From: a virus
DNA length: 64,000 nt
Virus record (IMG/VR): IMGVR_UViG_3300046810_000466
Location: 21,169-85,168 of that record
Strand: one strand, 5' to 3'
The position numbers were made by a program, and so were the translations under genes. Below the pieces are notes generated by a model that did not search any database, was not told the origin of the DNA, and was given only the letters and a program-made list of their open reading frames with translations. This document shows positions 729 to 59,887 of the stretch, piece after piece; position 1 is the first letter of the stretch; every line of letters begins with the position of its first letter.

Positions 729-777
729 GACGGTCATACCCCTCCGCCCCGTGTAGGGAGCGGAGGAGTCATGGCGT
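729..777 (-). terminator. gene-end hairpin followed by TATGACCGT motif
   Basis: CCTCCGC-CCC..GGG-A-GCGGAGG stem directly after the stop of 780..2126. Confidence 0.6.
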
Positions 778-779
778 GA

Positions 780-2126
780 TTACATACCGGCGGGTTTGAA
801 ATCCTGCGAACCTTCTTTGGCAGCTTTTGGCACATACATCTTGATCGACTGCTCGACCATGTTCAGAACTGCCTCAAACGTACCCATGGTGCGCTTGGTC
901 AAATCCGTCATGGGTTGCGTCGCCAGCTGACAGTACACGTTCGGCAGGTTCAACATGACATTCAACGTCGTACGGGCTTCTGGGTTCACTTCCGCTGCGC
1001 CATCCAGACGTTTGCTGACGTCTTCGATGACTTTGCCGAACTTACCACTGACATCTTCCATCCGGCTGGTTTGCGCCTTCTCCAGCTCGCTCATCAGTAC
1101 CAGTCCTTTCTGGACCGACTCCAGCGCGAGCTTCATACCAGACACTTTGAATGCCGGCATGGTCAGATGGTTCGACGGCGCCGCTTCACGTTCTTGCGTT
1201 ACGTGGCAACGAGCGATGGTCAGATCACGCAGCACTTGCGCAATCGGCTGATCACTCTTACGGTCCAGGAAGAAGGTGTTCATCAGGTTACCCCAAGTGA
1301 ACGAGACCCGGCAGCTGCCAGCCAACGGAGGCGACGTCGCTGTGAAGGTATTGGTGATGTGGCTGTCGATCGTATCGCGCTTGAAGTCCTTCACGCCGAA
1401 GGCATCGAAGTAACGCCAGAATGCCGGGATGATCTTTTCTGCCACTGTCTTCTGCAACGTTTCGTTGGTCGAGTCAGGTTGAACAGATTCGATCGTGGTC
1501 ATCATGGCCTGTGCCATGTTGGTGATCACCACAGGGCCGTCACGGAAGTTCTTGCGAACGTTCTTGAAGATGTCTTGCATCACCACCGAAAACGATTTGG
1601 TATCGAGCAGCTTCTGACCAGGCAAGGTGAAGATCTTGCCATCACGCATCGGCACATTGATGACGGGATTGGGTTGCAGCGGTTCTTCGGTCAGGTCGTT
1701 GATCTTGGTGCTCAGTTCTTCTGCGCGGTGGTTCAAGTAGTTGCGGTAGCTGAAGATGCGCTGGAAGAAGTTGGTAATGAAACCCCACGCTTTCTTCAGC
1801 AGCTCCACAATCTTCTTCCACACATCGCTGACATGATCCGCGATGGATTCGCAGGTAGGTGTATAGTCCACCACCGTTACCGAACCGGTCAGGGTATTAC
1901 CCATGCCTGTCACGATATCGTTCAATGCCAACAGTTCAGCGTTGTCGAAATCGCGAGCCATGGCTTTGGCATCCTGATAAATCACAGCCACTTCAGAAGT
2001 GGTGGTCATGGTCGTCAGGGTAGCGGAAAGGTTTGCAGCTTCTTGATCCGTTTCGTCGGACAGAATGGCAGCTTCTTCGACGGAGAGGTTCAAGCTTTCA
2101 GGCGGTGGGAGTGATCCGGAACGCAT
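780..2126 (-). CDS. internal head protein, phiKZ gp93-97-like paralog family
   Basis: 448 aa; acidic propeptide with LSVEE site, then 'DVWKKIVELLKKAWGFITNFFQRIF' amphipathic helix shared with neighbouring ORFs. Confidence 0.75.
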   Translation of the reverse strand: MRSGSLPPPESLNLSVEEAAILSDETDQEAANLSATLTTMTTTSEVAVIYQDAKAMARDFDNAELLALNDIVTGMGNTLTGSVTVVDYTPTCESIADHVSDVWKKIVELLKKAWGFITNFFQRIFSYRNYLNHRAEELSTKINDLTEEPLQPNPVINVPMRDGKIFTLPGQKLLDTKSFSVVMQDIFKNVRKNFRDGPVVITNMAQAMMTTIESVQPDSTNETLQKTVAEKIIPAFWRYFDAFGVKDFKRDTIDSHITNTFTATSPPLAGSCRVSFTWGNLMNTFFLDRKSDQPIAQVLRDLTIARCHVTQEREAAPSNHLTMPAFKVSGMKLALESVQKGLVLMSELEKAQTSRMEDVSGKFGKVIEDVSKRLDGAAEVNPEARTTLNVMLNLPNVYCQLATQPMTDLTKRTMGTFEAVLNMVEQSIKMYVPKAAKEGSQDFKPAGM

Positions 2127-2185
2127 GGTAAACTTTCATGTAAAGGGTTGGGTCGTTCTTCATAAAAATAGCAATACATTATCAA

Positions 2186-2230
2186 ACGGCATAAAGAACA
2201 CCACCACTCCGAAGAGCAGTAGTGTTCTCT
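2186..2230 (-). terminator. gene-end hairpin followed by TTATGCCGT motif
   Basis: AGAACAC..GTGTTCT imperfect stem after the stop at 2245. Confidence 0.6.
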
Positions 2231-2244
2231 ACGTCTAACCGAAG

Positions 2245-3654
2245 TTAGTACTGTGCCAGCGATTTCTCGACCAGCACCAGCGACACGCGGACGGTCTGGT
2301 AGACCTTCTTCGACACCGGCATGGTCAGGTCGGAGACCCAACGCGTCAGCGAGGTGTTGAAGTTGGCCATGGCCTTCATGGCGTCGACAGCGTAGGCACG
2401 CTCAGCGCGGCCGGCTTCATCGTTACCAGCCAGCTTACCCACGGCTGCAGCAGCAGTGCCGCCGCCTTCCAGCAGGTCAGCGCGGGTCTTCTCGATCGCC
2501 TTGGAGTCGGCACTGCCTTCGTGGGCAACAACCTTCTTGATCAGGGCTTCCGCCGCATTCAGCGTCGCGTCCATTTCCTGGTACGACATGGTGACGAATG
2601 CATTGGTGCTGCTGATCAGGGCGGCACGACCTTGGCGGGCTTCGATCTTCACGCCGCTGTTGCGCAGCGCTGCCACGATCTGGGCGTCGGACAGGTCCTT
2701 GGTCTTGTTCTTGTCGAGGCGGTGAGCGACGACGTTGAAGCAGCCCAGGTAACCGGTCGGCGGGTTCGATGGCAGGTTGGTGAAGTTGTTCTTCTGCAGG
2801 CCGACAGCGATGGTTTTGATCGCTTCAGCAGCCTTGTGCGGATCGTACTTCTTCAGTTCCGAAGCCACCTGGTCGCCCATGGACTTGCAGTCCTTCAGGT
2901 ACGGACCGAACGCGTAGGTTGCCAGTGTGCTCAGTTCGCCCATGCCCTTGCCCAGTTCCTTGGCGTCTTTGATGACGTAGTCCGGATAGGAGATGGCATT
3001 GGTGCCGACGTTGACCGTGATCTGGCCCAGCTTCGGCTTGTCGCCGCCGGCCTTCTTCTTGGTGCCGACCAGTTCCTTCAGCACCTTGATGCGGTGCAGC
3101 AGGCGCGGCGCAACCATGAAGATGCGCTTGAAGAACTCGGTGATGGTGCCCCAGATGTTCAGGCAGAACTGGCGGATGTTATTCCAGACTTCCTGGGCGT
3201 GCTGGCGGATGTTCTCCACGAAGCTTTCCAGAGCCAGTTGCTTTTCTTCCGGGGTACCGACCAGCAGCGGTTCAGCCGATGGGATGACGTCGTCCGGATT
3301 GCCATCGGAACCGGCCACTGCCATTTCGGAGGCGGTGTCGATCAGCATGGCTTGTTCCGGAGTCAGCTCTTTCACTTCGCTGACGGTGTCAGCAACGTTG
3401 AGCATGACGTCGGTGACGTCTTCAACACGGGTCGTTTCAGCAACGTCCTGGTTGACTTGGGTTTGCAGGGCATCTGCTTCTTGCAGCGCCATGACTTCTT
3501 CTTCCACGGACAACATGGAACGACCTTCCAGGATCTGGTCGATCGACATGCTCTCGATGGAGAGAGTGCCGTTGCCCGCATTGGTGTCGATGCCGCCTGG
3601 ATTGGCAGCATGGGCAGCAGGAGCAGCAGTTTTGTTCAGATATTGACGACGCAT
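2245..3654 (-). CDS. internal head protein, phiKZ gp93-97-like paralog family
   Basis: Start MRRQY at 3654; LSIES/LSVEE/LALES putative prohead-protease sites; 'VWNNIRQFCLNIWGTITEFFKRIF' family helix. Confidence 0.75.
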   Translation of the reverse strand: MRRQYLNKTAAPAAHAANPGGIDTNAGNGTLSIESMSIDQILEGRSMLSVEEEVMALQEADALQTQVNQDVAETTRVEDVTDVMLNVADTVSEVKELTPEQAMLIDTASEMAVAGSDGNPDDVIPSAEPLLVGTPEEKQLALESFVENIRQHAQEVWNNIRQFCLNIWGTITEFFKRIFMVAPRLLHRIKVLKELVGTKKKAGGDKPKLGQITVNVGTNAISYPDYVIKDAKELGKGMGELSTLATYAFGPYLKDCKSMGDQVASELKKYDPHKAAEAIKTIAVGLQKNNFTNLPSNPPTGYLGCFNVVAHRLDKNKTKDLSDAQIVAALRNSGVKIEARQGRAALISSTNAFVTMSYQEMDATLNAAEALIKKVVAHEGSADSKAIEKTRADLLEGGGTAAAAVGKLAGNDEAGRAERAYAVDAMKAMANFNTSLTRWVSDLTMPVSKKVYQTVRVSLVLVEKSLAQY

Positions 3655-3688
3655 CACTGTTACCTTTAAGTGAGGATTCGGGTAATTG

Positions 3689-3737
3689 AAAAAAAGAAGT
3701 AACACCCTTCACCCTCGTTGTTGCTGAGAGTGAAGGG
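3689..3737 (-). terminator. intrinsic terminator
   Basis: CCCTTCAC/GTGAAGGG stem with a T-run downstream on the minus strand. Confidence 0.65.
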
Positions 3738-3755
3738 CATTAACTTACCGCTTGA

Positions 3756-5150
3756 TTAGGCGGCCGCTTCAGCAGGCTTGGCGCCTTCAGCGGGTTTGGC
3801 TTCTTCTTTCTTTGGGGCGGCGCCGTACTGCTTCAGCGATTGCTCGCCGTATTGCAGGACGTAGCTGCCGGCGTTCAGCACGAAAGCGGCGATCGGAGGC
3901 GCAGCGTTGACCACCATGGACATGGCGCCCTTGGCGATAGCGCGAGCGTCGGCGTCAGCGATGGCGCCTTCAACTGGTTTGCCGTCGGCACCCTTGCCGC
4001 CTTCTTTGGCTTTCTTCTCGGCAGCAGCGATCACTGCGCTAGCAGCGGTCTCGGCTTCCTTCTGGGCTTTCTTGTAGCCCAGCACCAGGTCGGCGGCTTC
4101 GGAGATCTTCTTGGCAGCGGTGCCGACGTCGACAGCCGACAGGGTTGGCAGTTGGGTCTTGTCCGCTACTTTCTTCGACGCATCGAACACGCCCAGCTTG
4201 TAGCCGGCCTTGCCGATTGCTGCAGCACTGGTGCCGTCGGATGGGATGGTTGCGATCACAGCCTTGTTACCTGGCAGCGCTTCGCCTTTCCACAGTTCCA
4301 GACCTTCGCCAGGTGCCGAGGCGCCGACCGATGCTGGGTCGCCGACTTTGGTGAAGCCTTGGCCGGTCATCTTACGCGCTTCAGCGGTCAGGAAGGACAG
4401 GGCGTCAGCGCCGCCTTGTTCGATCGACTTGGCAGCGCCGGTGGCGAAGCTGGCAGCGTGGTTAGCCATGGCCGACAGGACAGATGCTTCTTGCACGATG
4501 GCTTGTGCGGCGGCGCCGACGTTGACGGTACCGTTGATGTGCAGGTTTTCAGCCAGCTTCTGGCTTTCGAAGGTCTTCGAGGTGGCTTCACCTTTGGTCG
4601 CGCCGGCGGCGGAGACGACCTTGTCAGCACGGGCCTTCATCTTGGTAGCGGTGTCGAAAATGCGGTTCCAGATGGCAACGATGGCTTTGGCCGCATTGCG
4701 GAACATTTCCAGGATCGCGCCCCACAGCTCGCCGGCTTTCTCGGCCAGGCCTTCAGCGGACAGCTGGGTGGTGCCAGCACGGCCGGCGGTGCCGCCGAAC
4801 GATTCGACCGACAGGGTCTTGTGGTTTTCGGGCAGACCCAGGCGACGGTTCCAGGATGCGTGCATTTGGTTCAGCAGGATGGCGCCGTTGCGGTCCAGGC
4901 CGCCGTTGGAGGCGATGATGCGCAGCGATTCGGTGGCGGCTTCCATTTCACCAGCAACTTCAGCAGCGGCGTCGACGGCGCCTTCGGTGTTGTCGATTTC
5001 GACGATGTCGTTGTTCACTTCGACCAGATCGGCTTCCAGGCTATCGGCACCGGCTTCGATCGGCGCTGCCGGCGCTTCTTCGCCCGGTGGTACTGCTACT
5101 GCTTCGATTTCTTCACGTGCCAGATTGGCGTAGATACGGTGGTTACGCAT
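3756..5150 (-). CDS. abundant internal head protein, phiKZ gp93-97-like paralog family
   Basis: 464 aa, Ala-rich, strong codon bias; LSVES/LSAEG sites; 'LWGAILEMFRNAAKAIVAIWNRIF' family helix. Confidence 0.75.
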   Translation of the reverse strand: MRNHRIYANLAREEIEAVAVPPGEEAPAAPIEAGADSLEADLVEVNNDIVEIDNTEGAVDAAAEVAGEMEAATESLRIIASNGGLDRNGAILLNQMHASWNRRLGLPENHKTLSVESFGGTAGRAGTTQLSAEGLAEKAGELWGAILEMFRNAAKAIVAIWNRIFDTATKMKARADKVVSAAGATKGEATSKTFESQKLAENLHINGTVNVGAAAQAIVQEASVLSAMANHAASFATGAAKSIEQGGADALSFLTAEARKMTGQGFTKVGDPASVGASAPGEGLELWKGEALPGNKAVIATIPSDGTSAAAIGKAGYKLGVFDASKKVADKTQLPTLSAVDVGTAAKKISEAADLVLGYKKAQKEAETAASAVIAAAEKKAKEGGKGADGKPVEGAIADADARAIAKGAMSMVVNAAPPIAAFVLNAGSYVLQYGEQSLKQYGAAPKKEEAKPAEGAKPAEAAA

Positions 5151-5229
5151 GTTGGTAATACTCCCATTGCAATGGATTTGAGGAAAAAGAAATAAATAAC
5201 TACTTCATTCCGCGCGGAATATGAAACGA

Positions 5230-5277
5230 TGGCTGGCTTGCCACTATACTATCTACTAGGAAGGGGCAAGCCAGCCA
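5230..5277. repeat. 13-bp perfect inverted repeat with 22-nt spacer
   Basis: TGGCTGGCTTGCC ... GGCAAGCCAGCCA between the stop of 5285..5896 and the start of 3756..5150. Confidence 0.7.
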
Positions 5278-5284
5278 AGGGGAA

Positions 5285-5896
5285 CTAGCCTTCGACTTCG
5301 CCGAACAAAACGTGCAACGTTTGGATCATGTCAGCGAAACCGTTAGGATGGGAACACCAGCGTTGGATAACGTCGATCAGCGCCACATTGCGGGCTGACT
5401 TGTTGTCATCCACAAAGAACCAGGTAAAGGAACCGTCGTCTTTGGTTTGGTTGTGGGTGATATCCATGGTGGACAACATGGTCGTCCAGGCATGCAAACC
5501 AACTGCACGTTTGCCGGTTTGGATGAACTCGAGCGTGTTGCGCAAGAACTCCATATGCATATCACCCGTGGAAGGACCATTCTGCTGGATCATGACCCAT
5601 TCCAGGAAGTCCGAAGTGCCGAAAGCGTTGAGCGCAATGCGCAACACCTTCTCACGGAACTCCATGTCATCGATCGAATGATGATGGTCGTTCATGTGAC
5701 GCCACATGCTTTCGATGTTGCGGTTCACTTCCTTCGGATTGGTCAAGCCTTTGAACCAGTCCGGGTGGTAGTTATGGGTCTTCAGCGCTGCTGCGCCGGC
5801 GCGTTCGGTAGGCTTGATCTGCTCACCCAGGCTTGCGCCCAAGAAGCCACGCGGATAGATCCGGTAGCCCTTGTAAGAAGGTGCGGTATCAGGCAT
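5285..5896 (-). CDS. conserved phiKZ-like protein (gp91/92 position)
   Basis: 203 aa ORF, overlaps upstream stop, GAGGAG RBS; synteny. Confidence 0.65.
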   Translation of the reverse strand: MPDTAPSYKGYRIYPRGFLGASLGEQIKPTERAGAAALKTHNYHPDWFKGLTNPKEVNRNIESMWRHMNDHHHSIDDMEFREKVLRIALNAFGTSDFLEWVMIQQNGPSTGDMHMEFLRNTLEFIQTGKRAVGLHAWTTMLSTMDITHNQTKDDGSFTWFFVDDNKSARNVALIDVIQRWCSHPNGFADMIQTLHVLFGEVEG

Positions 5897-6803
5897 ATTG
5901 CTCCTCGGTCTTACGCAGCAGCGCGCTCAGGTCTTCGATGCGTTTCTGGTTGTGTTCCAGTTGCTTCTCGATCGACGGATCTTTCTTACCCTGGAGCAGA
6001 CGTTCCATGCGCAGGCGGCGCAGTTCCAGCGCTTCCTTCTCGGCCTTGGCCTTTTCGTAGCGCAGGTGCTGCCATTCAGCCACTGCCATGCGGACATGGT
6101 AGATCGGGTTCATGAACAGCGGCACCACGCCGTGGCGGAACGGATCGAGCTTGGACAGGCCGATGCTGTTGGAGACCACTTGGTCGCCGCTGGCAGTGAT
6201 GACCACGTCGGGGATGGCTTCGAAGTCAGTACGCAGCTTGTCCGATGGTTTGGACAAGGTGTCCATCACTGCACAGAAGTCCAGGAAGCGGTCGCTCACG
6301 TAGCGCACCTCGGCTGGGGTCAGGATGGTTGCTGCATCGTCTGCTTCTTCTTCGTCATCGTCCAGGCGAATCTCGGCGGACTCCACCACGGTGACGTAGT
6401 TCAGGTAGCGCAGGGCGAAGTCGGATGCGAACGAAACCGACTCCAGCATCTGCAGAACGGCCGCCTTGTAGTAGGTGATGCCGGCGCCTTCGATGTCGTC
6501 GCTGTAGTCTTTCTCGACCAGCTTCTCGATCAGGTCCAGCGTCGCCAGCATTGGCTTCAACGTTTTCTCGATTGCGGCGATGGTGTTGGCGCCGTTGGCA
6601 CCTTTCACATTGCGGCGATAGACTTCCCAGTCTTTCAACAGACCAGGGTTAGCCAGCTTGCGGCTGCCGAACAGACGCATCGAGCTTTCATAGCTCGGCA
6701 CCGTGATGGCAGTCAGCACCAGGCGAGTTGTGCGGATGTCTTCCAGCACCGTTTGCTTGGCAAAGTTCGGCAGGAGGGACCGCAGGAAGTTAAGTGCTTT
6801 CAT
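5889..6803 (-). CDS. virion structural protein, phiKZ gp90-like
   Basis: 304 aa; 'NPIYHVRMAVAEWQ' followed by C-terminal coiled coil; synteny. Confidence 0.7.
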   Translation of the reverse strand: MKALNFLRSLLPNFAKQTVLEDIRTTRLVLTAITVPSYESSMRLFGSRKLANPGLLKDWEVYRRNVKGANGANTIAAIEKTLKPMLATLDLIEKLVEKDYSDDIEGAGITYYKAAVLQMLESVSFASDFALRYLNYVTVVESAEIRLDDDEEEADDAATILTPAEVRYVSDRFLDFCAVMDTLSKPSDKLRTDFEAIPDVVITASGDQVVSNSIGLSKLDPFRHGVVPLFMNPIYHVRMAVAEWQHLRYEKAKAEKEALELRRLRMERLLQGKKDPSIEKQLEHNQKRIEDLSALLRKTEEQYA

Positions 6804-6824
6804 GTTGTTATGTGCCGGTTTTAG

Positions 6825-8087
6825 TTAGAGGGATGGTGCATGACCGCCCATCAGGGCTTTCAGGATGTCACCGATGTCAGGACCGCTACCTTTGTTCGAC
6901 GCCTTCAGGTCCTTGATGCGGACGGTGGTTGGCATCGCGATGTTGCGGTGGTAGAAGGTAACGTTGTTGTAGTCGACTTCGTCCACGACCGCCATCATCA
7001 TCAGCGAGGTCTGTTTGAACATGCGCTGACGGATGTCGAACTTCGCCAGCTTGCCTTCCAGTTGCAGCTCGAGCTGTTCGGCGGTGTCCTTGGTGATGAC
7101 CACCATGTTGGTGGACGACGCGATGGTTGGCGAACCGGATACCAGGGTCGACAGTTTGTTGTTCAGGTTGGTGCGGCCGATGTTACCCAGTGTGCCGGAC
7201 GGATCCTTCAGCAGATCGGAGCGGTGTTTGTCCACCAGATCGTTGCACAAGACCAGGTCTTTCCAGAACGACAGGCGACCGGACTTCCAGCCGTGCCAGC
7301 GCTCTTTGAACGAGTTGTCTTCGCTGCCCGTGGCTAAAATATGAATCAGATCCGGACCTGGCAGGACCGAAGCAATCAGGCGGATGTTCACCTGGACTGG
7401 CAACGAACGCTTGCCGTCGGAGATCTGGATCTCGTACGACTTACCAACTGACAGGTTCGCCAGTTCGGTCATGGTGCGGCCGATGTCTGCTTTCGAAATG
7501 GCTTCGATCTTGCCGTCGCGCATGTCAGTGCCGTTTTCGCTGACGGACAGGTTGTTGCCTTCAGCTGCATCGGCAGTGCCCATGCCACCCATGGCGCCAG
7601 CGGTATTGCCACGGCTCTTACCGCCACTGCCGACACCACCTTCGCCGGTGCTCATGCCTGGTGTTTTCTGTGCTGCGCCGCCCAAGCTACCCAGACCGGA
7701 TTCGATCGACAGGCGCAGCTTGTTGTTGGTCGGGAACGGCAGACCGTCTTCGTAGGCTTCGGTGGCAATCATCCAGGTCGACAGACCGGCGTTAACCGGA
7801 TTACGGTTCGGGTTCAGGGTGTCGAGGCGGTCGATCACACGGATGTTGCCCATGACGTTGGACAGCGACGCTGCTTGCAGGTAGTAACCAGCGAAGATCG
7901 ACAGAAGGGATTGCTGTACTTCACCGATGCAGTCGAGGTGCATAGCAGCCTTTTCGATCAGCACCAGCGGCTCGACACGACCTACACTGGTGAAGTCCAC
8001 CAGCGAATCCGACGTACCACCACGACGCATGAGATCGCCTGCTCGGTTGAGGACGCTCAGTCCGGTATTCACGAGATCGCTATACAT
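6825..8087 (-). CDS. virion structural/head protein, phiKZ gp89-like
   Basis: 420 aa; 'SLVDFTSVGRVEPLVLI', 'DRLDTLNPNR', 'FWKDLVLCNDL'; IATEA/LSIES sites around a Gly-rich linker. Confidence 0.7.
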   Translation of the reverse strand: MYSDLVNTGLSVLNRAGDLMRRGGTSDSLVDFTSVGRVEPLVLIEKAAMHLDCIGEVQQSLLSIFAGYYLQAASLSNVMGNIRVIDRLDTLNPNRNPVNAGLSTWMIATEAYEDGLPFPTNNKLRLSIESGLGSLGGAAQKTPGMSTGEGGVGSGGKSRGNTAGAMGGMGTADAAEGNNLSVSENGTDMRDGKIEAISKADIGRTMTELANLSVGKSYEIQISDGKRSLPVQVNIRLIASVLPGPDLIHILATGSEDNSFKERWHGWKSGRLSFWKDLVLCNDLVDKHRSDLLKDPSGTLGNIGRTNLNNKLSTLVSGSPTIASSTNMVVITKDTAEQLELQLEGKLAKFDIRQRMFKQTSLMMMAVVDEVDYNNVTFYHRNIAMPTTVRIKDLKASNKGSGPDIGDILKALMGGHAPSL

Positions 8088-8123
8088 ATTACATTTTCCT
8101 TTTCAGTACAGGGGTTTTTCTAA

Positions 8124-9215
8124 ATGGCCGAATATACTTCAACTTCCAATGGCGGTCCGTTTGCCAACATAAAGGTCAAATCAGACGATGTAGACCAGGT
8201 TTTTCGTGTATCGCCCAGTGGGCAAACCACAACGGCCATCGGTGATAACTTTCGTGGATTTAACCACAGACAAGCGCCGAGTCTCATACCAATTAATAAG
8301 GATCAGTACGGGATGACGTTTTTCACCCGTCCGCGGATGAACATGACGGATGAAAATCTGCGTGTTTTGCGCAAGTTTGCGCCGCTGCTTTCGACACGTG
8401 AAGACTCGATCCAGCGGATCATTCGTTGCTGGTTGGACCCAGTGTCCAATAAGAATGGATCGATCAAAAGTCCCTACGTTGATGAATGCATGCCGTTCAT
8501 TCCGTTGCTGTCCAACTTGCTCATTAACTTGCCAGGCTGGCCAGACGAAGCGCTGCCTTACTCCACCTCACAAGAGGGTATCCGTAAGGAGCAGTTCAAT
8601 CTGGTAGACGGTACCGAAGAGATCTTGCGCACGGTTGACTTGACTGCGAACTTCCGCAACGTGTCCGGCAATCCAATCACACCGCTGTTCCGGTACTGGT
8701 TGGCATACGCTCGTGCTGTGTACTTCGGCGAAATGAATCCATACCCAGAAGCCATCCTGGAAAACGAAGTCGACTACGACACACGCATCTACCGTCTGAT
8801 CCTGGACGACAAGAAAAAACATGTACTCAACATTGGCGCCACTGGCGCCGGGTTCCCTGTCTCCAATCCGATCGGAGCACTGTTCAACCATGAAGCGGAT
8901 CAAGGCGAAGGCCTGATTAATACAGGGCTGCAACAGGTGAGTGTGCACTTCGTTAACATGGGCGCCATGTACGACGACGATATGTTGATGTGGGAATTTA
9001 ACCAGTGTTCTGAACAGTGGTTCAATCCCAGTTTGGCAGATGGCACGCGACAAACGATGTATACCAAAATTCCAATGGACGAGCTGCCGATCTTCAATTA
9101 CCGTGGTTACCCTCGCATCAATCTCGAGACTTATGAACTCGAGTGGTGGGTGCGGAACACTGAATACAGGCAGCTGGCTGGTCTTGCTAAAATCTACAAA
9201 GAAACCCGAGGATAA
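8124..9215 (+). CDS. virion structural protein, phiKZ gp88-like (tail tube/baseplate-related)
   Basis: 363 aa; 'GMTFFTRPRMNM', 'VDYDTRIYRLILD'; divergent orientation as in phiKZ-like genomes. Confidence 0.7.
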   Translation: MAEYTSTSNGGPFANIKVKSDDVDQVFRVSPSGQTTTAIGDNFRGFNHRQAPSLIPINKDQYGMTFFTRPRMNMTDENLRVLRKFAPLLSTREDSIQRIIRCWLDPVSNKNGSIKSPYVDECMPFIPLLSNLLINLPGWPDEALPYSTSQEGIRKEQFNLVDGTEEILRTVDLTANFRNVSGNPITPLFRYWLAYARAVYFGEMNPYPEAILENEVDYDTRIYRLILDDKKKHVLNIGATGAGFPVSNPIGALFNHEADQGEGLINTGLQQVSVHFVNMGAMYDDDMLMWEFNQCSEQWFNPSLADGTRQTMYTKIPMDELPIFNYRGYPRINLETYELEWWVRNTEYRQLAGLAKIYKETRG

Positions 9216-9220
9216 CTTCC

Positions 9221-12166
9221 ATGGCTCTCGCAATTCAAGAAATGATCGACAACGTCACACGCTATCGCTTCAACCCGGCTAGTATCCAGCGGGTGGCGTT
9301 GCGTGGGCTGGCGGAGATCAACAATGGTCAACAGCTTTACTTCGATGCAACCAATCCGTTTATTCAAGCGCTGCAATGTGGCGCAGTAGAAACGGCAGCA
9401 TTCATGCAGTCGCACGAAGCCGAGTGCCGTCGTCGTTATCCGTGCCTGGCACAGACACAAGAAGATCTGTACCTGCATATGTCGGACCAAGCTTATATCA
9501 ATCGCTTTGCTGTTCCGGCACAAGCGAACTTCAGCTTCCGCTTCTTCAAGCCCGAGCTGGTGAACGCCATGGTCTACGATAATGCAACCGGCTATACCAA
9601 GCTGGTTATTCCTCGTAACACCTACTTCACTGTGGGTGGCACCGTCTTCAGTTTACAATACCCTATCGACGTGCGTCAGTTGGCCAATGGCGCGTTGTCA
9701 ATCGTGTATAACAACGAGCAGGTATCGCCACTGCAAACGTTGGAAAGCAACTCGATCCCTTACGAGATCCAGGATGGCGCTGAAGGTGAGTACGTCAAGT
9801 TCGATGTGCTGGCCACCCAATTCAACATCACTCAGATGGTGGAGTCCATCAGCAAAGCGAAAGACGTATCGATCGCAATGCCGATCACCGATCAGATTTA
9901 CTTTGCTCGGGTGTACCACAAGAACTCGGCGACCGGTAAATGGGATGAGCTGGCTACCACCCATGCCGCCAGTATTTACGATGCCACGAAACCAACAGCA
10001 GTCCTTCACGTTGCTGACGGGGTCTTGCAGGTGAAGATTCCGCAAGTGTATGTTCGCACTGGGCTGCTGTATTCGAATATCCGGGTGGACATGTACGAGA
10101 CCAAAGGCGCCATCAATCTGCCGCTGGCTGAGTACCCATCGAATGCGTTCTCCATTACGTGGAAAGCGTTCGACAGCTCCGAGCAGAGTAATGTCTTCTC
10201 GGCGCCATTGCCGAACATGAACGTGAATGCTTTCTCCAACGAGATCGTCATCGGCGGTCGCAATGAGATGGGGTTCGAAGAGTTGCGCAAGAACGTCATC
10301 AACAACGCGACGGGTCCTATCCACCAACCTGTTACCGAAGCCCAGTTGGAAGCACAGTTGAGGAACGCTGGTTACGACATCGTTAAAGGTAAAGACAACA
10401 TCACGGACCGTATCTACTTAGCGACCCGTGAGATGCCATCGCCTGAGCTTGTTACAGCCACCACAGCGGCCTCAACAGGCAACAAGCTACTCACGGCAGC
10501 CGCAGCCTCTATTGAGACCCTGACGGTCGCTACAGAGTCTCTCGCTGGCTTGCCTACGGTGATTGATAACGGCGACAGCATTACCATCACACCAGACACG
10601 CTTTACCAGATCGTGGACGGCATTGCACAGCCGGTACCGCAATCCGATGTAGAGAACATCTTGTCGATGCCGGCTGACAAACGCGCGTTGGCAGTGACCA
10701 ACGGTAACTTCCTTTACACGCCATTCCACTACGTGCTCGATTCATCGAATGCGTCGTTTGAGATTCGTCCGTACTACTTGGACAATCCGATGGCCACCTC
10801 CAAGGTGTTCGTCAAACAAAATGACACAACACTGATGTTGGTGGGAACGTCGTTGTACGGTCTGGTGCGCACGACGACAGGTTTCATCATGCAAGTACAA
10901 ACGCGTTCTGACGATGTCTATAAGTCATTGCCGGACAGCCAAGTGTTTGCACAGATGGCTTTCATCCCGCACGGTGAGCGGGATCGTGCCTACGTTAACG
11001 GTGTGATGGTTGGCAAGACGTCGAAAGGTGAACGGATCTTTAACTTCGATCTGTCCACCACGTTCAATGTGGACTCCAGCGACAACATGGAGATGACCAA
11101 GTTCACCATGTACAACACGGAACCTCGGATCACCAAGACCGCGTTGCTCAACTCGTTCGATGTGATCTACTCCACCTCCGTGGTATTGACGTCCCGTTGG
11201 ACGCCAAATGAAGTGGATGAGGTGTTGGGTCGTCATCTGTTGCCGAACCAGATCGCCGGTATCAACCACGAACAGATCCGGATCAAGTTCGGCGAACCAC
11301 TGGACATGCTCTGGACTCGTGCTCGCACTGTCGCTTCTTCCATCACGTACCAGGTGTGGGAGGAGGATCTGCAAGCCTTCTACAAAGAAGACGTGTTTGA
11401 GTACGGCGCTGACGGTTTGCGGTTGAGTGTGGTGGAAGGGCAGCTGGTCTATAACAAGTTGCATCTGAAAGGTGATCCGATTCTCGGTCCTGAGGAAGCC
11501 ATCACGTACGAACACCGTAAAGGTGATCTGAAACGCGATTCGTCAGGTCAGCTGATCCCAGCCAACCCACGGGGTCTGAAACGTCAGATCGACTTGATGT
11601 TGCTCGAGGGTGTGTACTGGTTCGCCACCGATGAAACGACGGCCAACTACCGCACGACATTGACCCGGGCACTGGTGTCATGGTTGGTGAACGATCTGGA
11701 GTCCTTCAAAACGGGACTGCTGGACAAGACGCGGATCTACTTCTATCCGAAGACTACCTCGGGTACGGTCAACGTTTATCTGTGGGATGATGTTCGTAAG
11801 GCTATCTCTGCTGGTCAGTCGTTCAACGTAACGTTGGCGGTGTCCAAGCAAGTGCATGAGAACCTCAACCTGCGTGATCGTCTGGAAGTGGCAACCATCC
11901 AAGTGCTGTCGACGATGCTGCAACAGAAGACCGTGTCGACATCGCAGATGCTCGAAGCGCTGCGCAAGAAATACGGCAGCGATGTTATCGACGTGCAGTT
12001 GTCAGGTCTGGGTGGTGAGTTCAACTATCCCGTGCTGACCATGGCAGATGACACCGACCGTCTGTCCATCCGTAAACGTCTGGTGGCTTTGGCCGACGGT
12101 AAGTTGGCAGCTGAAGAAGATGTTACCGTGGCTTTCGTCATTCACAAAGGCAAAAGCGCTACTTAA
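9221..12166 (+). CDS. large virion structural protein, phiKZ gp87-like (probable baseplate wedge)
   Basis: 981 aa; 'AQTQEDLYLHMSD', 'IGGRNEMGFEELRKNVI' reminiscent of baseplate wedge/J proteins. Confidence 0.7.
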   Translation: MALAIQEMIDNVTRYRFNPASIQRVALRGLAEINNGQQLYFDATNPFIQALQCGAVETAAFMQSHEAECRRRYPCLAQTQEDLYLHMSDQAYINRFAVPAQANFSFRFFKPELVNAMVYDNATGYTKLVIPRNTYFTVGGTVFSLQYPIDVRQLANGALSIVYNNEQVSPLQTLESNSIPYEIQDGAEGEYVKFDVLATQFNITQMVESISKAKDVSIAMPITDQIYFARVYHKNSATGKWDELATTHAASIYDATKPTAVLHVADGVLQVKIPQVYVRTGLLYSNIRVDMYETKGAINLPLAEYPSNAFSITWKAFDSSEQSNVFSAPLPNMNVNAFSNEIVIGGRNEMGFEELRKNVINNATGPIHQPVTEAQLEAQLRNAGYDIVKGKDNITDRIYLATREMPSPELVTATTAASTGNKLLTAAAASIETLTVATESLAGLPTVIDNGDSITITPDTLYQIVDGIAQPVPQSDVENILSMPADKRALAVTNGNFLYTPFHYVLDSSNASFEIRPYYLDNPMATSKVFVKQNDTTLMLVGTSLYGLVRTTTGFIMQVQTRSDDVYKSLPDSQVFAQMAFIPHGERDRAYVNGVMVGKTSKGERIFNFDLSTTFNVDSSDNMEMTKFTMYNTEPRITKTALLNSFDVIYSTSVVLTSRWTPNEVDEVLGRHLLPNQIAGINHEQIRIKFGEPLDMLWTRARTVASSITYQVWEEDLQAFYKEDVFEYGADGLRLSVVEGQLVYNKLHLKGDPILGPEEAITYEHRKGDLKRDSSGQLIPANPRGLKRQIDLMLLEGVYWFATDETTANYRTTLTRALVSWLVNDLESFKTGLLDKTRIYFYPKTTSGTVNVYLWDDVRKAISAGQSFNVTLAVSKQVHENLNLRDRLEVATIQVLSTMLQQKTVSTSQMLEALRKKYGSDVIDVQLSGLGGEFNYPVLTMADDTDRLSIRKRLVALADGKLAAEEDVTVAFVIHKGKSAT

Positions 12167-12167
12167 T

Positions 12168-12213
12168 ACGGCATACACTCCCATCACCCCGTAGGGTGAT
12201 GGGAGCTATGACC
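12168..12213. terminator. bidirectional hairpin flanked by ACGGCATA / TATGACC
   Basis: CTCCCATCACCC-CGTA-GGGTGATGGGAG perfect stem between convergent genes. Confidence 0.75.
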
Positions 12214-12214
12214 T

Positions 12215-13600: not shown

Positions 13601-14104
13601 TTACTGTGCTCCCATTGGAACAGCAGGCGGCGATAGCAGCATGGCCACGTCGGATGCGATCAACATGATCTCGACTTTGTACTTGTTCATGAACTGGCTC
13701 AGTTCGTCCGAGATCTGGGATGCGCCACCGGAGTACAGCATGGTGATGTCCATGTTCTTGGCGGCTGGTTGGCTCAGCAGGTACTTCAGACGGTACTCGC
13801 TGTCTTGGGTATAGGCCGCCGGCCATGCTGCGAAATAACGCATCTTCCAGAACACCTGGGTGTATTCCAGTGCGGACTTGGCACCGAACACCACGCTCTC
13901 GTTGACTTCGGAGATCTTCTCCGATACCACTGGCAGCACTTGCTGGGCGAAAAATGCTGGGATGTTCTCCAGCTGTGCCGAAGGCAGGTGAGCTTGTGCC
14001 GAGGCGGCCAGCGCCACTGCGATCGCAACGATGCGTCCTTGATCAGCCGGCGCCTTGACAGTGCGGCCAATCGTTTCATTCAGTCCAAAGTACTTCGGGT
14101 CCAT
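13601..14104 (-). CDS. putative virion protein
   Basis: 167 aa, AAGGA RBS, abuts the next gene. Confidence 0.6.
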   Translation of the reverse strand: MDPKYFGLNETIGRTVKAPADQGRIVAIAVALAASAQAHLPSAQLENIPAFFAQQVLPVVSEKISEVNESVVFGAKSALEYTQVFWKMRYFAAWPAAYTQDSEYRLKYLLSQPAAKNMDITMLYSGGASQISDELSQFMNKYKVEIMLIASDVAMLLSPPAVPMGAQ

Positions 14105-14127
14105 GGGTTGTTTTCCTTGTCGGGTAA

Positions 14128-15444: not shown

Positions 15445-15591
15445 GGTTGGTATCCTTGTTGACCTGATTCAGAAAGTAAAAATAACGAGTAGGGCTATCA
15501 TTTGGTCCCAAACATGCAACGCAAAAAGAAACACCCGTTATCAGTGAAGTCATACTGATATTTACCGAATACCCTCTGATCGAGCCGCAAT

Positions 15592-17526: not shown

Positions 17527-17529
17527 TAG

Positions 17530-44213: not shown

Positions 44214-44304
44214 GATGTTTCCTTTTTTGTGGTAAAGATTGTTAATTTGTTTGCGCAAACAAACGTAGGTGGTTAACACGACTATCTCTAGCTATGTCAG
44301 TATA

Positions 44305-46988: not shown

Positions 46989-46997
46989 TCGCATAAG

Positions 46998-47045
46998 CGT
47001 CATAGCTCCCTCTACCCCGCAAAGGGTAGAGGGAGTGTATGCCGT
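46998..47045. terminator. bidirectional hairpin flanked by CGTCATA / TATGCCGT
   Basis: CTCCCTCTACCC-CGCAAA-GGGTAGAGGGAG perfect stem between convergent genes. Confidence 0.75.
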
Positions 47046-49189: not shown

Positions 49190-49240
49190 GCCAGCATCCT
49201 TTAATTCTGCGTTGACTACATCATTAGGTTCGACGATAGA

Positions 49241-49296
49241 AAAGAAAAAAGGACGGCATAAAAGGAGGACAGGAACCGCCGAAGCGATCCCTGTCC
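49241..49296 (-). terminator. hairpin followed by TTTTATGCCGT and T-run
   Basis: GGACAGG..CGC-CGAA-GCG..CCTGTCC stem. Confidence 0.65.
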
Positions 49297-49299
49297 AAA

Positions 49300-49625
49300 A
49301 GTGTATCATGGATGTCCAAACAAATGCTAGGTAAAACAGAGCGACACTACAAGCTGTTCAGGGATGTGAAATAACAAGATCGTCAACCGCTTTGACCCGA
49401 TCAATCGTGCAAAAAAGGATGGCAAAACACACGAGATCGTAGATCTCACAATTTTCCTTTCCTGCTATTTCGCGCCACCTCTACGCTTTACATCCTTGGC
49501 CTCTTATAGCGCCGCCCTCACACCTCTGTCGCAAGCAGAGCAATACGTCAACCAAGCCAGTATGGCCAACGCATTTAAAGGTTGTGTGACTCCCTTTCCT
49601 ACACTTTATACTCAGCCCTAATAAA
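49300..49625 (-). ncRNA. candidate structured non-coding RNA
   Basis: No convincing gene; nested helices with many G-U pairs on the minus strand only (see findings). Confidence 0.45.
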
Positions 49626-53724: not shown

Positions 53725-53789
53725 ACGGCATAAAAAGAAAAGCACACTTAACTATACAGTTCTCTTGCGAGAAGGGATAGTTAAGTGTG
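53725..53789 (-). terminator. long hairpin followed by T-run and TATGCCGT
   Basis: CACACTTAACTAT..TTCTC-TTGC-GAGAA..ATAGTTAAGTGTG. Confidence 0.7.
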
Positions 53790-54314: not shown

Positions 54315-55355
54315 TTACAGCACCAGGCCAGTGTTGTCGACCTTGTCGGTGTTCGACAGGATCGAGGTCTTCGGCGGACGCGACTCGGCAGCTTGAGTCA
54401 GATCGCTCAGGAAACCGTTCAGGCCCTTGGTGAACTGCGGCAGCAGGCCGTCGGAGATGACGTAGCTGATGACCTTGCCAGCCAGCTGTTCGCCGCCGTC
54501 CTTGATCTGCGGCAGGATACCAACGGTCTGGTACTCCGGCGCTTGCGGCAGGTCGGTGTTCACGCCTTCAGGCGCCAGCGTTGCCACCGAAATGATGTTA
54601 CCCAGCTTGGCCAGGTCGCTTTTCATTTCGGTGTTGTCGCCGTCGGCTTGGTCGTGCCAGAGGATGGTCAGCACCGCCAGCTGGGCGCCGAACGAGGTCA
54701 GGCCGTCTTTGCTGAAGTTCAACCAGTTCTGCAGATCCTTGGTGTCCAGTTCGCGGTTGCGACGCGAGTAGAGCATGCCCAGGTAGCTGATGGTCGAGAT
54801 CATCGACTGGTCAACTTTGGCACGGATCAGCGTCGGCGAGTTCTGCAGATAATGCATCACCACCGGCATGTCGCGTTTCTGGGAGATCGCTTCGTAGGTT
54901 TTCAGCGTCTTCAGGGTGTTCTCGGCTTCCAGCTTGGAAGCGGTCGAACCGACCATCAGGATGATAACGGCCACGCCGCGAGCCAGCAGTTCGGACGCCA
55001 GCAGTGGACCGATAACCGAACCGGAGCCGCCGGCGCCGGAGGACAGGATGATGTTCAGGTCGCCTGGCTTGTGCTGTTGCAGGATATCTTTGACGCGTTC
55101 GGCGATGGCGCCGCTGTTTTCGGAACGTACTTTACCGGAGCCGTCCAGGCCTTCGACCAGATAGCACTCGGCTTCACGGGAATGGGCGGACAGGTTCGAG
55201 CGGCTGGTGTCAACCAGAACCACTTCGAAGTCGGAAACCAGGTCACGGTTCACGGTGGTGTTCTTCAGACCGGCTACGATGTTGATGGCTGCACCGCCGC
55301 AGGCGTAGATGCGGGTACGACCTTTAGCAGGGGTTTGAGTAACTACTTGGTTCAT
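54315..55355 (-). CDS. phuZ: PhuZ phage tubulin
   Basis: 'IYACGGAAINI', 'DTSRSN', 'DGSGKVR', tubulin signature 'SGAGGSGSVIGP', 'ELDTKD', C-terminal 'DNTGLVL'. Confidence 0.93.
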   Translation of the reverse strand: MNQVVTQTPAKGRTRIYACGGAAINIVAGLKNTTVNRDLVSDFEVVLVDTSRSNLSAHSREAECYLVEGLDGSGKVRSENSGAIAERVKDILQQHKPGDLNIILSSGAGGSGSVIGPLLASELLARGVAVIILMVGSTASKLEAENTLKTLKTYEAISQKRDMPVVMHYLQNSPTLIRAKVDQSMISTISYLGMLYSRRNRELDTKDLQNWLNFSKDGLTSFGAQLAVLTILWHDQADGDNTEMKSDLAKLGNIISVATLAPEGVNTDLPQAPEYQTVGILPQIKDGGEQLAGKVISYVISDGLLPQFTKGLNGFLSDLTQAAESRPPKTSILSNTDKVDNTGLVL

Positions 55356-55436
55356 GACAATCCTTTTATTGATTATGAAGAAAACATCCAACAGCACTTC
55401 TGGACATTGGATAACAGCAACCCTATAAGAATATAC

Positions 55437-55462
55437 CCGGTTAGCTAGGGCGAACTAACCGG
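55437..55462 (-). terminator. hairpin between hypothetical gene and phuZ
   Basis: CCGGTTAG..CTAACCGG 8-bp stem. Confidence 0.45.
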
Positions 55463-55474
55463 CCGAGGTGTAAC

Positions 55475-57050: not shown

Positions 57051-57860
57051 ATGAACCCGATCACCAAGGCGTTGGATGAGGTGCTGTTCCGCATCCCCCG
57101 CGAGATCTTGAATGTGGTATTCATCAACCCCTACCAACAGTACCGGGATATGCCATCCGATCTCAAGGAGCGCATTAACTTCCAGGTCATGACGCCGCGT
57201 GTGTTGGTCGACTGTAATCTGGTCGGCGGGGTTGAAGTACGGATTCCTTTGGACGATGTGCCAAGCGAAACCGTGGACGGTGGTTATACAACTGTCTTCC
57301 GCATTCCCAAGAGTAAGACCAATGGCCGCTCTATCTCGGCTGCATTCGATGTCACCTACGGCAATCTGTACAACACGCAGTCCGGTTATGGTGCACATTC
57401 CTACGGTCGCACTAGCCCTGTGCTGTCGGCCACTGCGAGTGTGATGGAAGCCCAACTGCGTACGCCGTACGTTGGCAGCGCTCGTGTGGAACTGGTTGGC
57501 GAGAACGTGGTCATGATTCAGGATTCAATCATCCTGCCTCAGAACCTGTACCTGCGTTGCTCTCTGGAAAACGACAGCACTTTGTCAAACATCCGAGTAC
57601 GTAGCTATCCCGTGTTCTCCCGTCTGGTAGAGTTGGCCGTCAAATCCTACATCTACAACAACTACATCATCAAACTCGACATGGGCGAGCTGCGTGGTGG
57701 TGTGCAAGTAGGGCGCTTCAAAGAAATCGTCGATAGCTATGCCGATGCTGAAACGATGTACCAGGAACACTTGACCGAGAAATGGGCGAAGGTTGCGTTC
57801 ATGAACGATCAAGAATCCATGCACCGTTTCACTTCGATGTTGATTGGCGGTTCTCGCTAA
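57051..57860 (+). CDS. conserved chimallivirus virion protein
   Basis: 269 aa, AGGAG RBS; 'FRIPREIL', 'RVLVDCNLVGG', 'LAVKSYIYN', 'VDSYADA'. Confidence 0.7.
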   Translation: MNPITKALDEVLFRIPREILNVVFINPYQQYRDMPSDLKERINFQVMTPRVLVDCNLVGGVEVRIPLDDVPSETVDGGYTTVFRIPKSKTNGRSISAAFDVTYGNLYNTQSGYGAHSYGRTSPVLSATASVMEAQLRTPYVGSARVELVGENVVMIQDSIILPQNLYLRCSLENDSTLSNIRVRSYPVFSRLVELAVKSYIYNNYIIKLDMGELRGGVQVGRFKEIVDSYADAETMYQEHLTEKWAKVAFMNDQESMHRFTSMLIGGSR

Positions 57861-57925
57861 CAAAAAAAAGAAACAGCATACATCCCTCACCCCGCCCGTA
57901 AGGGTAGGGTGAGGGGCTATGTCGT
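57861..57925. terminator. bidirectional hairpin flanked by ACAGCATA / TATGTCGT
   Basis: CCCTCACCC..GGGTGAGGG stem between convergent genes. Confidence 0.7.
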
Positions 57926-58140
57926 TATCGCAGATGATGCAGTGGATCACGCGTGGTGGCGAAATGATCTTGCTCGAGCTTCTTTACAACTTCCACGGCT
58001 TCTGCTGATGAGCAGTGTGCCGCTTTCATGTAGTGGGTATGTGCATCAGCCATACACTTCTCGAGAAGGATCTTCTTCGTCTCCTCCAGAATCTTGGCAT
58101 GTTCGTCGGCTTTCACCTTGCCTTTGTATGGATTCGTCAT
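57925..58140 (-). CDS. small hypothetical protein
   Basis: 71 aa, follows upstream stop by 5 nt. Confidence 0.55.
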   Translation of the reverse strand: MTNPYKGKVKADEHAKILEETKKILLEKCMADAHTHYMKAAHCSSAEAVEVVKKLEQDHFATTRDPLHHLR

Positions 58141-58751: not shown

Positions 58752-58847
58752 GACGCATCCTTTACAAGAAACATTGATTAATTGGTTACCAAGACATGGT
58801 ATTCACTCCCATGAATATTTTTTCCTGGTAACCAGCATTGTCGATAC

Positions 58848-59522
58848 TTAGTAGTGCTTTTCTCCGTTCTTGATGAAGTAGGTGTTGATCGAGTGGGGAT
58901 AATGTTCGTCGCCCAAAAACAAACGAAGAAGGTCTTCGCTGTTTACTGTGGTTTCGTCCTGGAACACAATGCGGCCAAAACGCTGTTCCTGGTCACCGCT
59001 CGTACGTGTGATAAAGTACCCGATCTCATCTACGTCATAAGTGATGAGTATTCCAATTGTAGCAACTGGAATCGTGCCGTCGTCGTTTAGACGTAGGCTC
59101 AGGTAGATGTGTCCGTACTTGGTGCCGATGGCTGTGATCTGCCAAAGACGAGGACCTTCCGGACTGTTGAACATCTTCCGGTACGTCTGGATTTGATTCT
59201 CGTCACGTGGACGTGGGTCGAAGTCTGTCATGTGGTCCACGTGCAACTGCTGCAGATACTTGTTCAGAAGCAGCTCTGCAAGGATGTAATCTGGCGAACG
59301 CACGAACAACGGACGCAGCATGGTGTTGTACTGGTCGATCGAGAGTTCTTCACTCAGGTTGTTCTTGTACATGGTCGTGGCGCTGACATGAAGGTTGGGC
59401 GGAGGTGGCGGAGCTTCTTTATCCGTCACAGGTTTTGGTGCAGAGACAACGGGCTGTTGTACTGGAGAGGAATGATTCTTCGCCAGCAAAAGCAACACTG
59501 TGGCAATCACAGTAGTTAACAT
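58848..59522 (-). CDS. hypothetical protein with N-terminal membrane anchor/signal and Pro-rich linker
   Basis: 224 aa, AAGGAG RBS; 'MLTTVIATVLLLLA', 'APPPPPN'. Confidence 0.65.
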   Translation of the reverse strand: MLTTVIATVLLLLAKNHSSPVQQPVVSAPKPVTDKEAPPPPPNLHVSATTMYKNNLSEELSIDQYNTMLRPLFVRSPDYILAELLLNKYLQQLHVDHMTDFDPRPRDENQIQTYRKMFNSPEGPRLWQITAIGTKYGHIYLSLRLNDDGTIPVATIGILITYDVDEIGYFITRTSGDQEQRFGRIVFQDETTVNSEDLLRLFLGDEHYPHSINTYFIKNGEKHY

Positions 59523-59534
59523 GGTAGCTCCTTA

Positions 59535-59570
59535 GCGTTATAGGTAAATCTCAGCACTTACCTATAACGC
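59535..59570 (-). terminator. 13-bp hairpin
   Basis: GCGTTATAGGTAA..TTACCTATAACGC. Confidence 0.55.
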
Positions 59571-59588
59571 CAATAAATGGCATCTAGG

Positions 59589-59816
59589 TTATTCGTCGAG
59601 ATTAAGATCATAGCGAACAGCAAGTTTCTTCAATTCAGCTATCGCTTCGTAGATGATTTCAGGATTAGTGGAGATATTGCTTTGATCAAACCACATAGTT
59701 ACCTCGTGGATAGCATCTTCCGTTTTCACGGTCTCAAATAACTTGAGCGCAATTTTTAGCGCCTGCTTTCGTATTACAAGCAAGTCAATTTGTTGTTTTA
59801 GTTCCTTCGATGTCAC
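59589..59816 (-). CDS. small AT-rich hypothetical protein
   Basis: GTG start after AAGGA; ~75 aa helical ORF. Confidence 0.5.
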   Translation of the reverse strand: MTSKELKQQIDLLVIRKQALKIALKLFETVKTEDAIHEVTMWFDQSNISTNPEIIYEAIAELKKLAVRYDLNLDE

Positions 59817-59830
59817 AACTTTCCTTTCTA

Positions 59831-59887
59831 TAAAAAAGGAAACGGCATACAGCACATGGGACCAGGTCTCCCCAGTCCCATGTGCTG
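59831..59887 (-). terminator. hairpin followed by TATGCCGT and T-run
   Basis: CAGCACATGGGAC..GTCCCATGTGCTG 13-bp stem. Confidence 0.72.

Follow-up and report, generated by a model that had tools for sequence, protein, structure and literature searches.

The hairpin modules and their genomic setting

The window analysed here, 64 kb of DNA with 53% GC, forms the right-hand portion of a single-contig assembly (85,168 bp) from an uncultured phage (IMG/VR record IMGVR_UViG_3300046810_000466), and our subject is a module that recurs at its gene ends: a GC-rich hairpin followed on the transcribed strand by TATGYYGT or a close variant. PHROG matches identify a gene for chimallin, the nuclear-shell protein (42273-44279), a PhuZ tubulin gene (54315-55397), and four split RNA polymerase (RNAP) beta-type subunits (18453-19802, 26221-28287, 28352-30511, and 40619-42172). 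Because phiKZ-type split multisubunit RNAPs are encoded here together with chimallin and PhuZ, the window is part of a divergent phiKZ-like, nucleus-forming jumbo phage (chimallivirus). Other PHROG matches in the window include two DNA polymerase genes, a helicase, an SbcD-like nuclease subunit, and internal head proteins. The best named database match of the RNAP subunit at 28352-30511 is to Burkholderia phage FLC9, at 44% identity; all 300 matching records lie below 60%, and identity to the Pseudomonas phiKZ-like phages PhiPA3 and PS119XW is ~32-33%. Megablast of a phage collection returned no nucleotide match to this phage, a search for close relatives that might show covariation at orthologous junctions found none in viral contigs (6 pattern-matched stretches) or metagenome contigs (46 stretches), and Rfam and tRNA scans of the window returned 0 matches each.

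Fourteen strong hairpins in the window, with refolded stem free energies (dG) of -20.7 to -34.7 kcal/mol, bear 19 motifs of the form TATG(C/A/T)(C/T)(G/C)T. The TATG core lies on the non-template strand in all 19, and exact TATGYYGT occurs in 11 (eight TATGCCGT, two TATGCTGT, and one TATGTCGT); the remaining eight deviate at one to three of the last four bases. The 14 hairpins are GC-rich stem-loops, C-rich in the 5' arm and G-rich in the 3' arm; of the 19 directional readings, 10 have a 5' arm that is 75% or more pyrimidine, and the other 9 are mixed. Stems vary in sequence and in length (10-19 bp). The motif stands directly 3' of the stem, at a spacing of 0-4 nucleotides (nt) in 17/19 cases, and in as many motif base 6 lies 6-10 nt from the end of the stem; the spacer is 6 nt at 49253 and 10 nt at 53725. 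A leading T, giving TTAT, is found at 7/19 sites.

An earlier note on this DNA had listed seven minus-strand motifs, all of which are present. At tandem junctions, hairpin 739-768 (dG -23.1) adjoins TATGACCG at 738-731 (module 731-768), and hairpin 2194-2229 (dG -22.2) adjoins TATGCCGT at 2193-2186 (module 2186-2229), upstream of an internal-head-protein gene (780-2126). After the helicase gene (24677-26224), hairpin 24649-24674 adjoins TATGACGT at 24648-24641 (module 24641-24674); this motif is contained in a 12-nt palindrome, TATGACGTCATA (24637-24648), and so reads alike on both strands, the plus copy having no preceding hairpin. The tandem module at 35859-35897 consists of hairpin 35869-35897, a GC spacer, and TATGCCCT at 35866-35859 (given as ~35861 in the note), while that at 59842-59887 has hairpin 59850-59887 (dG -32.5) adjoining TATGCCGT at 59849-59842. 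Two modules have T-rich spacers. The first, at 49253-49296 upstream of a DNA polymerase gene, has hairpin 49267-49296, the spacer TCCTTT, and TATGCCGT at 49260-49253; our ORF (open reading frame) for the polymerase starts too early and runs across the module, with a PHROG match that begins at residue 41. The second, a tandem module at 53725-53789, has an interrupted hairpin (53743-53789, missed by our automated hairpin rule), the spacer CTTTTCTTTT, and TATGCCGT at 53732-53725. To these we add a weaker or hybrid tandem module at 39901-39954, in which hairpin 39911-39954 (dG -34.7) is followed by TATGTATC at 39908-39901 and then TTTTTTT.

The two-sided stems that the note placed at convergent junctions are likewise there. 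At 12168-12214, hairpin 12178-12205 has TATGCCGT as its minus-strand motif (12175-12168) and TATGACCT as its plus-strand motif (12207-12214). The module at 17529-17585, which follows the DNA polymerase gene 15592-17526, has hairpin 17534-17573 with TATGCCGC on the minus strand (17536-17529) and, beyond a CACT spacer, TATGCCGT on the plus strand (17578-17585). The module at 24002-24050, whose flanking ORF calls are weak, has hairpin 24010-24040 with TATGCGCT (minus, 24009-24002) and TATGCTGT (plus, 24043-24050). Between the plus-strand gene 45702-46988 and the minus-strand DNA polymerase gene 47045-49309 (module 46997-47045), hairpin 47005-47036 carries TATGACGC (minus, 47004-46997) and TATGCCGT (plus, 47038-47045), and after the plus-strand gene 57051-57860 (module 57873-57925), hairpin 57883-57916 carries TATGCTGT (minus, 57880-57873) and TATGTCGT (plus, 57918-57925). 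These bidirectional copies are near-perfect palindromes with similar C-rich arms. One further convergent junction has a one-sided module at 31017-31067, with hairpin 31021-31053 (31017-31056 on refolding), the sequence CTTATT, and TATGCCGT on the plus strand at 31060-31067. We considered, and rejected, extension of the stem by CATA...TATG pairing at palindromic sites as the whole explanation of the motif, because the far side of the stem lacks TATG in the 8 one-sided modules.

Several related sequences lie outside this set. On the minus strand at 5214-5276, a hairpin (~5231-5276) is followed by TCGTTTCA and then by TATTCCGC (5221-5214), the K=T form of the published TATKYYG, and a similar weak form, TATATTCTT, follows a hairpin in 55398-55474. 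A copy of TATGACGT lies inside ORF 58848-59522 (59032-59072, minus strand), 10 nt past a weak AT-rich stem (59050-59072); all other exact TATGMCGT matches stand at gene ends. Upstream of the window, at -18394 to -12233 in window coordinates, a minus-strand ORF of 2053 amino acids contains several internal repeats, identical stems lying ~360-960 nt apart, and ends in a hairpin + TATGCTGT module (-18452 to -18418). The SbcD-like palindrome-nuclease subunit is encoded at 37620-39053 on the minus strand, in the same genome that has many long perfect palindromes at convergent junctions.

Enrichment, placement, and distribution of the motif

To define hairpins we used a simple stem-loop finder, because a sliding 60-nt scan of minimum free energy gave 213 clusters below -22 kcal/mol and was too unspecific in GC-rich DNA; the thresholds of the finder influence the counts that follow. 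Enrichment of the motif 3' of hairpins, which the earlier note had proposed as a check over the full genome and relatives, exceeds chance. Across the 85-kb contig, no 4-mer is more enriched than TATG in the 19 nt at or beyond the end of the stem, where it occurs at 23/112 hairpins versus 2.7 expected (binomial p = 3.6e-15). TATGMCGT occurs 11 times against an expected 2.95, a number that 0 of 100 shuffles reached, and TATGYYGT lies just 3' of a hairpin at 11/15 of its sites, versus 2/20 and 0/9 for two rearranged control patterns.

The statement that a U-tract is often lacking also holds, with four or fewer T in the 9 nt past the stem at 16/19 sites (the exceptions are 39901, 49253, and 53725). 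With these exceptions, the modules do not have the U-rich tract right after the hairpin by which canonical intrinsic terminators are recognized. A scan of positions 1-20000 for a canonical hairpin plus T-run found 16 sites versus 19.1 expected, with none of the module hairpins among them. The element is absent from some gene ends, where ordinary T-tract terminators and bare hairpins occur; hairpin + T-tract terminators are seen on the minus strand at 3700-3742, 28308-28332, 42218-42253, and 31020-31054.

We then classed each strong hairpin, in each reading direction, by the type of junction in which it lies, using our own approximate codon-bias ORF calls (those flanking 23984-24054, and ORF 57925-58140, are weakly supported). 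Counts are given for this contig and for a pooled set of five genomes (this contig, phiKZ, FLC9, 201phi2-1, and RSL2). The motif was present in 11/12 convergent hairpin directions of the contig (pooled 68/121), 6/18 tandem sense directions (67/209), and 1/11 tandem antisense directions (20/109). No divergent direction was classed in the contig (pooled 3/16). Within genes it was found in 1/16 sense (17/170) and 0/11 antisense directions (3/154). The only intragenic case in the contig is the 49267 hairpin, wrongly swallowed by an ORF call, and 26/27 intragenic hairpins are without the motif. In the pooled set, convergent differs from tandem sense with p = 2.6e-5 and tandem sense from tandem antisense with p = 0.012. 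All six convergent junctions of the window have a hairpin, five of them with the motif on both sides; the sixth (31021-31053) has a plus-side motif and a minus-side T-rich tail. TATG is confined to the sense side in 8/8 tandem modules of the window. Thus, judged by these ORF calls, the motif lies at the 3' end of transcription units, on the transcribed strand, and its placement tracks transcript ends rather than gene starts. The strand-specific signal described in the earlier note, one part of which is conserved in sequence, is supported.

The strand rule has an exception upstream of the window (-11422 to -11383), where a strong hairpin between two minus-strand ORFs has TATGCTCT on the plus, antisense side; the sense side bears only a TATTTCA-like sequence.

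The same enrichment was evident in four other jumbo phages. TATG accompanied hairpins at 68/261 in phiKZ (19.2 expected), 70/430 in FLC9 (8.3 expected), 42/238 in 201phi2-1 (12.1 expected), and 60/340 in RSL2 (9.4 expected), and 34/66, 29/37, 42/65, and 10/25 of their TATGYYGT occurrences, respectively, followed a hairpin. Values for the multisubunit-RNAP-encoding phages EL (20/273, 9.0 expected), SPN3US (12/237, 7.6 expected), and AR9 (20/296, 23.6 expected) were lower, with only 2/14, 0/18, and 0/15 TATGYYGT copies after a hairpin. The module is clade-restricted, because strong hairpins of EL, SPN3US, and AR9 mostly have TTTT or TTATT-type tails instead of TATGYYGT.

A probable terminator motif and its rival readings

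As a terminator motif the element has been published before and is not new; this phage adds a distant, uncultured case. ONT-cappable-seq of phiKZ yielded a conserved hairpin + TTATKYYGT at 61 terminators, with the full consensus BCCYCCCCHWWDGGGRRGGBYTTATKYYGT (Putzeys et al. 2024, PMC10914365), and most of the predicted intrinsic terminators among the termination sites mapped by this method belong to phiKZ (PMC10914365). In 201phi2-1, terminator motif A (n = 59) was reported to be a strong match to the phiKZ motif (PMC11512511). TATGCCGT is an instance of TATKYYGT, and our extended consensus sequences run in parallel: TATGCCGT in this phage, TATGCCgT in FLC9, TTATG.CgT in 201phi2-1, and TTATG..(g)T in phiKZ. 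Both strands of phiKZ bear the motif at the convergent gp116/gp117.1 junction. In the searchable text of PMC10914365 and PMC11512511 the string 'TATG' occurs 0 times, these two papers are the only ones in the searchable literature to join the non-virion RNAP (nvRNAP) with terminators, and the terminator motif is nowhere in that literature linked to TATG. The accessible text of Wicke 2020 (PMC8244752) gives terminator counts only and nothing on a motif.

When we placed the eight transcription termination sites printed for strong 201phi2-1 terminators on the genome (coordinates from PMC11512511), 8/8 lay past a hairpin and a TATG-type motif. Seven of the eight fall at motif base 6, after TATGNY and before the G, and one at base 5; one of the base-6 cases has TATA. 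The 3' ends thus lie ~8 nt past the stem, between a pyrimidine and the conserved G. In a two-reporter trap, four of eight 201phi2-1 terminators beat and two of eight matched lambda T0 in uninfected P. chlororaphis (PMC11512511). Because those reporter cells were uninfected, the module also works with the host polymerase in that assay. The proposal that RNA ends map at the motif is accordingly borne out in relatives, at the 61 phiKZ terminators and the eight 201phi2-1 sites, whereas the proposal that the signal is specific to phage RNAPs is not supported, downstream reporter expression being reduced under the host polymerase too. Overall, the earlier interpretation is partly supported: it survives as a strand-specific transcript-end signal, but its specificity for phage RNAPs and its restart promoter find no support.

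We consider it likely that the modules are hairpin-dependent terminators of the phiKZ-type jumbo phages in which a conserved motif replaces the U-tract, and we infer, by analogy, that they work in this uncultured phage as in its relatives. The signal comprises an RNA hairpin that is GC-rich, its 5' arm often rich in C and its 3' arm in G, then 0-4 nt, then TATG-Y-Y-G-T; the module is one-sided between co-directional genes, whereas convergent genes have a two-sided one built on a single stem. If the mapped 201phi2-1 ends are a guide, transcripts would end ~6-10 nt past the stem, between TATGYY and G. The polymerase may be slowed at the pyrimidine/G step of the motif, a site suggested by those mapped ends and by what is known of the elemental pause; the weak UAU part of the RNA:DNA hybrid may help, and the hairpin would close behind the polymerase and release the RNA.

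Several points weigh against this reading. A search of sequencing runs found the sequence in a single one, a DNA metagenome run that may be its source, and in no RNA run. The long T-rich spacers at 49253 and 53725 place the motif 12-16 nt from the stem, which misfits a distance-dependent role. Taken by itself, 201phi2-1 runs contrary to the pooled placement trend (convergent 1/12, tandem sense 8/28, tandem antisense 5/14); this is probably due to our hairpin threshold missing its short stems, since a pattern search reveals at least nine closely spaced minus/plus pairs of the motif in its genome. Exonuclease trimming to a stable hairpin could also yield ends at stem + 8 nt, and for this reason the mapped ends are no proof of a causal role of the motif in termination. 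The reporter test ran on the host polymerase, and in it effects on termination and on RNA stability are inseparable. Finally, TATG is the essential core of the phiKZ late promoters, so that a second role of the motif is possible.

The last point deserves elaboration. The earlier note was correct that phiKZ late promoters have a TATG core: transcription starts at its G, and the core is necessary for initiation by nvRNAP (Yakunina 2015, PMC4666361). In a structure of phiKZ nvRNAP on promoter P119L, the beta-like subunit GP123 binds the single-stranded non-template TATG in a pocket under the lobe (de Martin Garrido et al. 2026, PMC12809450). The pocket that reads TATG in late promoters might also read the terminator TATG during elongation and so bring about termination independent of a U-tract, though we think this rather unlikely. 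Promoter-like capture would hold the polymerase for 2-3 more nt, up to the pyrimidine/G step, giving the hairpin time to form. Jumbo phages would thereby have a counterpart of sigma-dependent pausing, and a single four-base code would stand at starts as well as stops, the hairpin and the YYGT tail deciding between them. The pocket residues S144, F151, K158, H/Y185, N186, K190, H331, S334, Y/F406, and Q466 are kept in phiKZ, 201phi2-1, and FLC9; RSL2 keeps all of them but K190, and many differ in EL and SPN3US. Pocket conservation therefore parallels the presence of the module, a comparison that is confounded by phylogeny and depends on alignment at 19-30% identity. BLASTP for a GP123 homologue against 40619-42172 gave nothing, and tblastn against the 85-kb contig gave a best E of 0.13; no homologue is found in the contig since it is only part of the genome.

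The promoter core also underlies an unlikely reading, in which the hairpin alone terminates and TATG, with its start at G, is a late promoter from which nvRNAP restarts transcription of the next gene, giving antisense RNA at convergent junctions. The requirement for TATG with +1 at G (PMC4666361) and its recognition as single-stranded non-template DNA (PMC12809450) are what such a promoter would need. At the tandem junctions measured, moreover, the motif stands ~44-96 nt upstream of the next start codon, and gaps bearing it (95-163 nt) tend to be longer than T-tract gaps (50-100 nt). A hairpin-less TTTATGCCTT occurs on the plus strand at 20686-20695, within the divergent region 20651-20881 and ~190 nt upstream of the plus-strand gene 20882-21382; it is a candidate free-standing late promoter, or a chance occurrence. 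Yet the motif is found most often where a restart would serve no gene, at the convergent directions counted above: 8 tandem instances precede a gene and 11/19 point antisense into a converging gene, so a same-strand gene downstream is not a general property of the motif. In addition, the conserved YYGT tail has no counterpart in the late promoters described in the accessible text of PMC4666361, and the model late promoter P119L, TATGTAGA, has neither a hairpin nor YYGT. The extended motif is seldom free-standing (after a hairpin at 11/15 sites in this phage, 29/37 in FLC9, and 42/65 in 201phi2-1), the mapped 201phi2-1 3' ends lie 2 nt past the G, and one module stands ahead of a gene that is not obviously late, for a DNA polymerase. 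Comparison of the tandem sites revealed no consistent second motif between module and next start codon. At tandem junctions, the module may nevertheless have a dual terminator/restart role.

Alternatively, the module could act on RNA, the hairpin protecting the mRNA and UAUGYYGU being read by a nuclease or RNA-binding protein that governs processing, stability, or the passage of the RNA out of the phage nucleus. In favour of this, the motif lies on the transcript in a strand-specific manner, and 3' ends at stem + 6-8 nt fit the distance at which exonucleases stall at a hairpin. The mechanism also goes untested in the accessible text of PMC10914365 and PMC11512511. However, the reporter trap worked in uninfected cells without phage proteins (PMC11512511), literature searches gave no sequence-specific RNA-binding factor for the motif, and both this reading and simple trimming leave the conserved G and T unexplained, since these bases would lie outside a mature RNA that ended after TATGYY. 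We therefore regard an RNA-level signal as highly improbable. A DNA-level element unrelated to transcription (a dispersed palindromic repeat, protein-binding site, or cruciform) is extremely improbable: the palindromic form and similar C-rich arms of the bidirectional copies, and the SbcD-like gene at 37620-39053, would suit it, but stems vary in sequence and length, one-sided copies track the direction of the upstream gene in 8/8 tandem modules, 26/27 intragenic hairpins lack the motif, and RNA ends map to the element in phiKZ and 201phi2-1.

Meaning and comparison with known systems

The phiKZ terminator motif persists almost unchanged, as TATGCCGT, in a phage of 53% GC with an RNAP subunit only 44% identical to that of FLC9 and ~32-33% identical to those of the Pseudomonas phages. 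The T-rich context of the AT-rich model phages is gone in this genome, and the conserved sequence, not a U-tract, is therefore likely to be the functional 3' element. This raises the question of how sigma-less split RNAPs terminate, and whether a promoter core has been reused as a stop signal. For annotation, a hairpin + TATGYYGT can mark where operons end in uncultured chimalliviruses that resemble phiKZ, 201phi2-1, FLC9, and RSL2; it is inapplicable to EL, SPN3US, and AR9.

Like canonical intrinsic terminators, the modules have a stable GC-rich hairpin at the gene end and a predicted release point 6-10 nt past the stem, but a conserved mixed-sequence element stands in place of the U-tract. 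Sequence-specific pause and termination signals are known from other polymerases and include the elemental pause (G-10, Y-1, G+1), sigma-dependent pausing at -10-like non-template elements, and the class II signals of T7 RNAP. The end mapped in the relative 201phi2-1 lies, as in the elemental pause, where a pyrimidine meets a G, with G as the base 10 nt upstream in 12/17 sites; for jumbo-phage RNAPs this resemblance in sequence is only a lead. With the phiKZ late promoter, the modules share the same four bases, TATG, on the non-template strand. They differ from it in having YYGT and a preceding hairpin, whereas the promoters show no conserved bases past TATG and need no hairpin, and in lying at transcript ends, convergent junctions included.

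The closest likenesses are to the terminators of the related phages. Motif A of 201phi2-1 is likewise a hairpin + TTTATGYYGT; the UUU that precedes AUG there, owing to which ARNold calls many of these terminators canonical, is mostly missing in this phage, and whereas terminator activity was assayed for 201phi2-1, in the host without phage, the present modules are known from sequence. The phiKZ terminators also share a GC-rich stem-loop whose 5' arm is rich in C and 3' arm in G, then (T)TATKYYGT, at gene ends and in bidirectional form at convergent genes. Their 3' ends are RNA-mapped, whereas this phage is known from its DNA alone, and its stems are 10-19 bp long compared to a 7-bp consensus core in phiKZ. 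It has a T before TAT at 7/19 sites only, in a flank that is not T-rich, and its genome has 53% GC compared to 37% in phiKZ.

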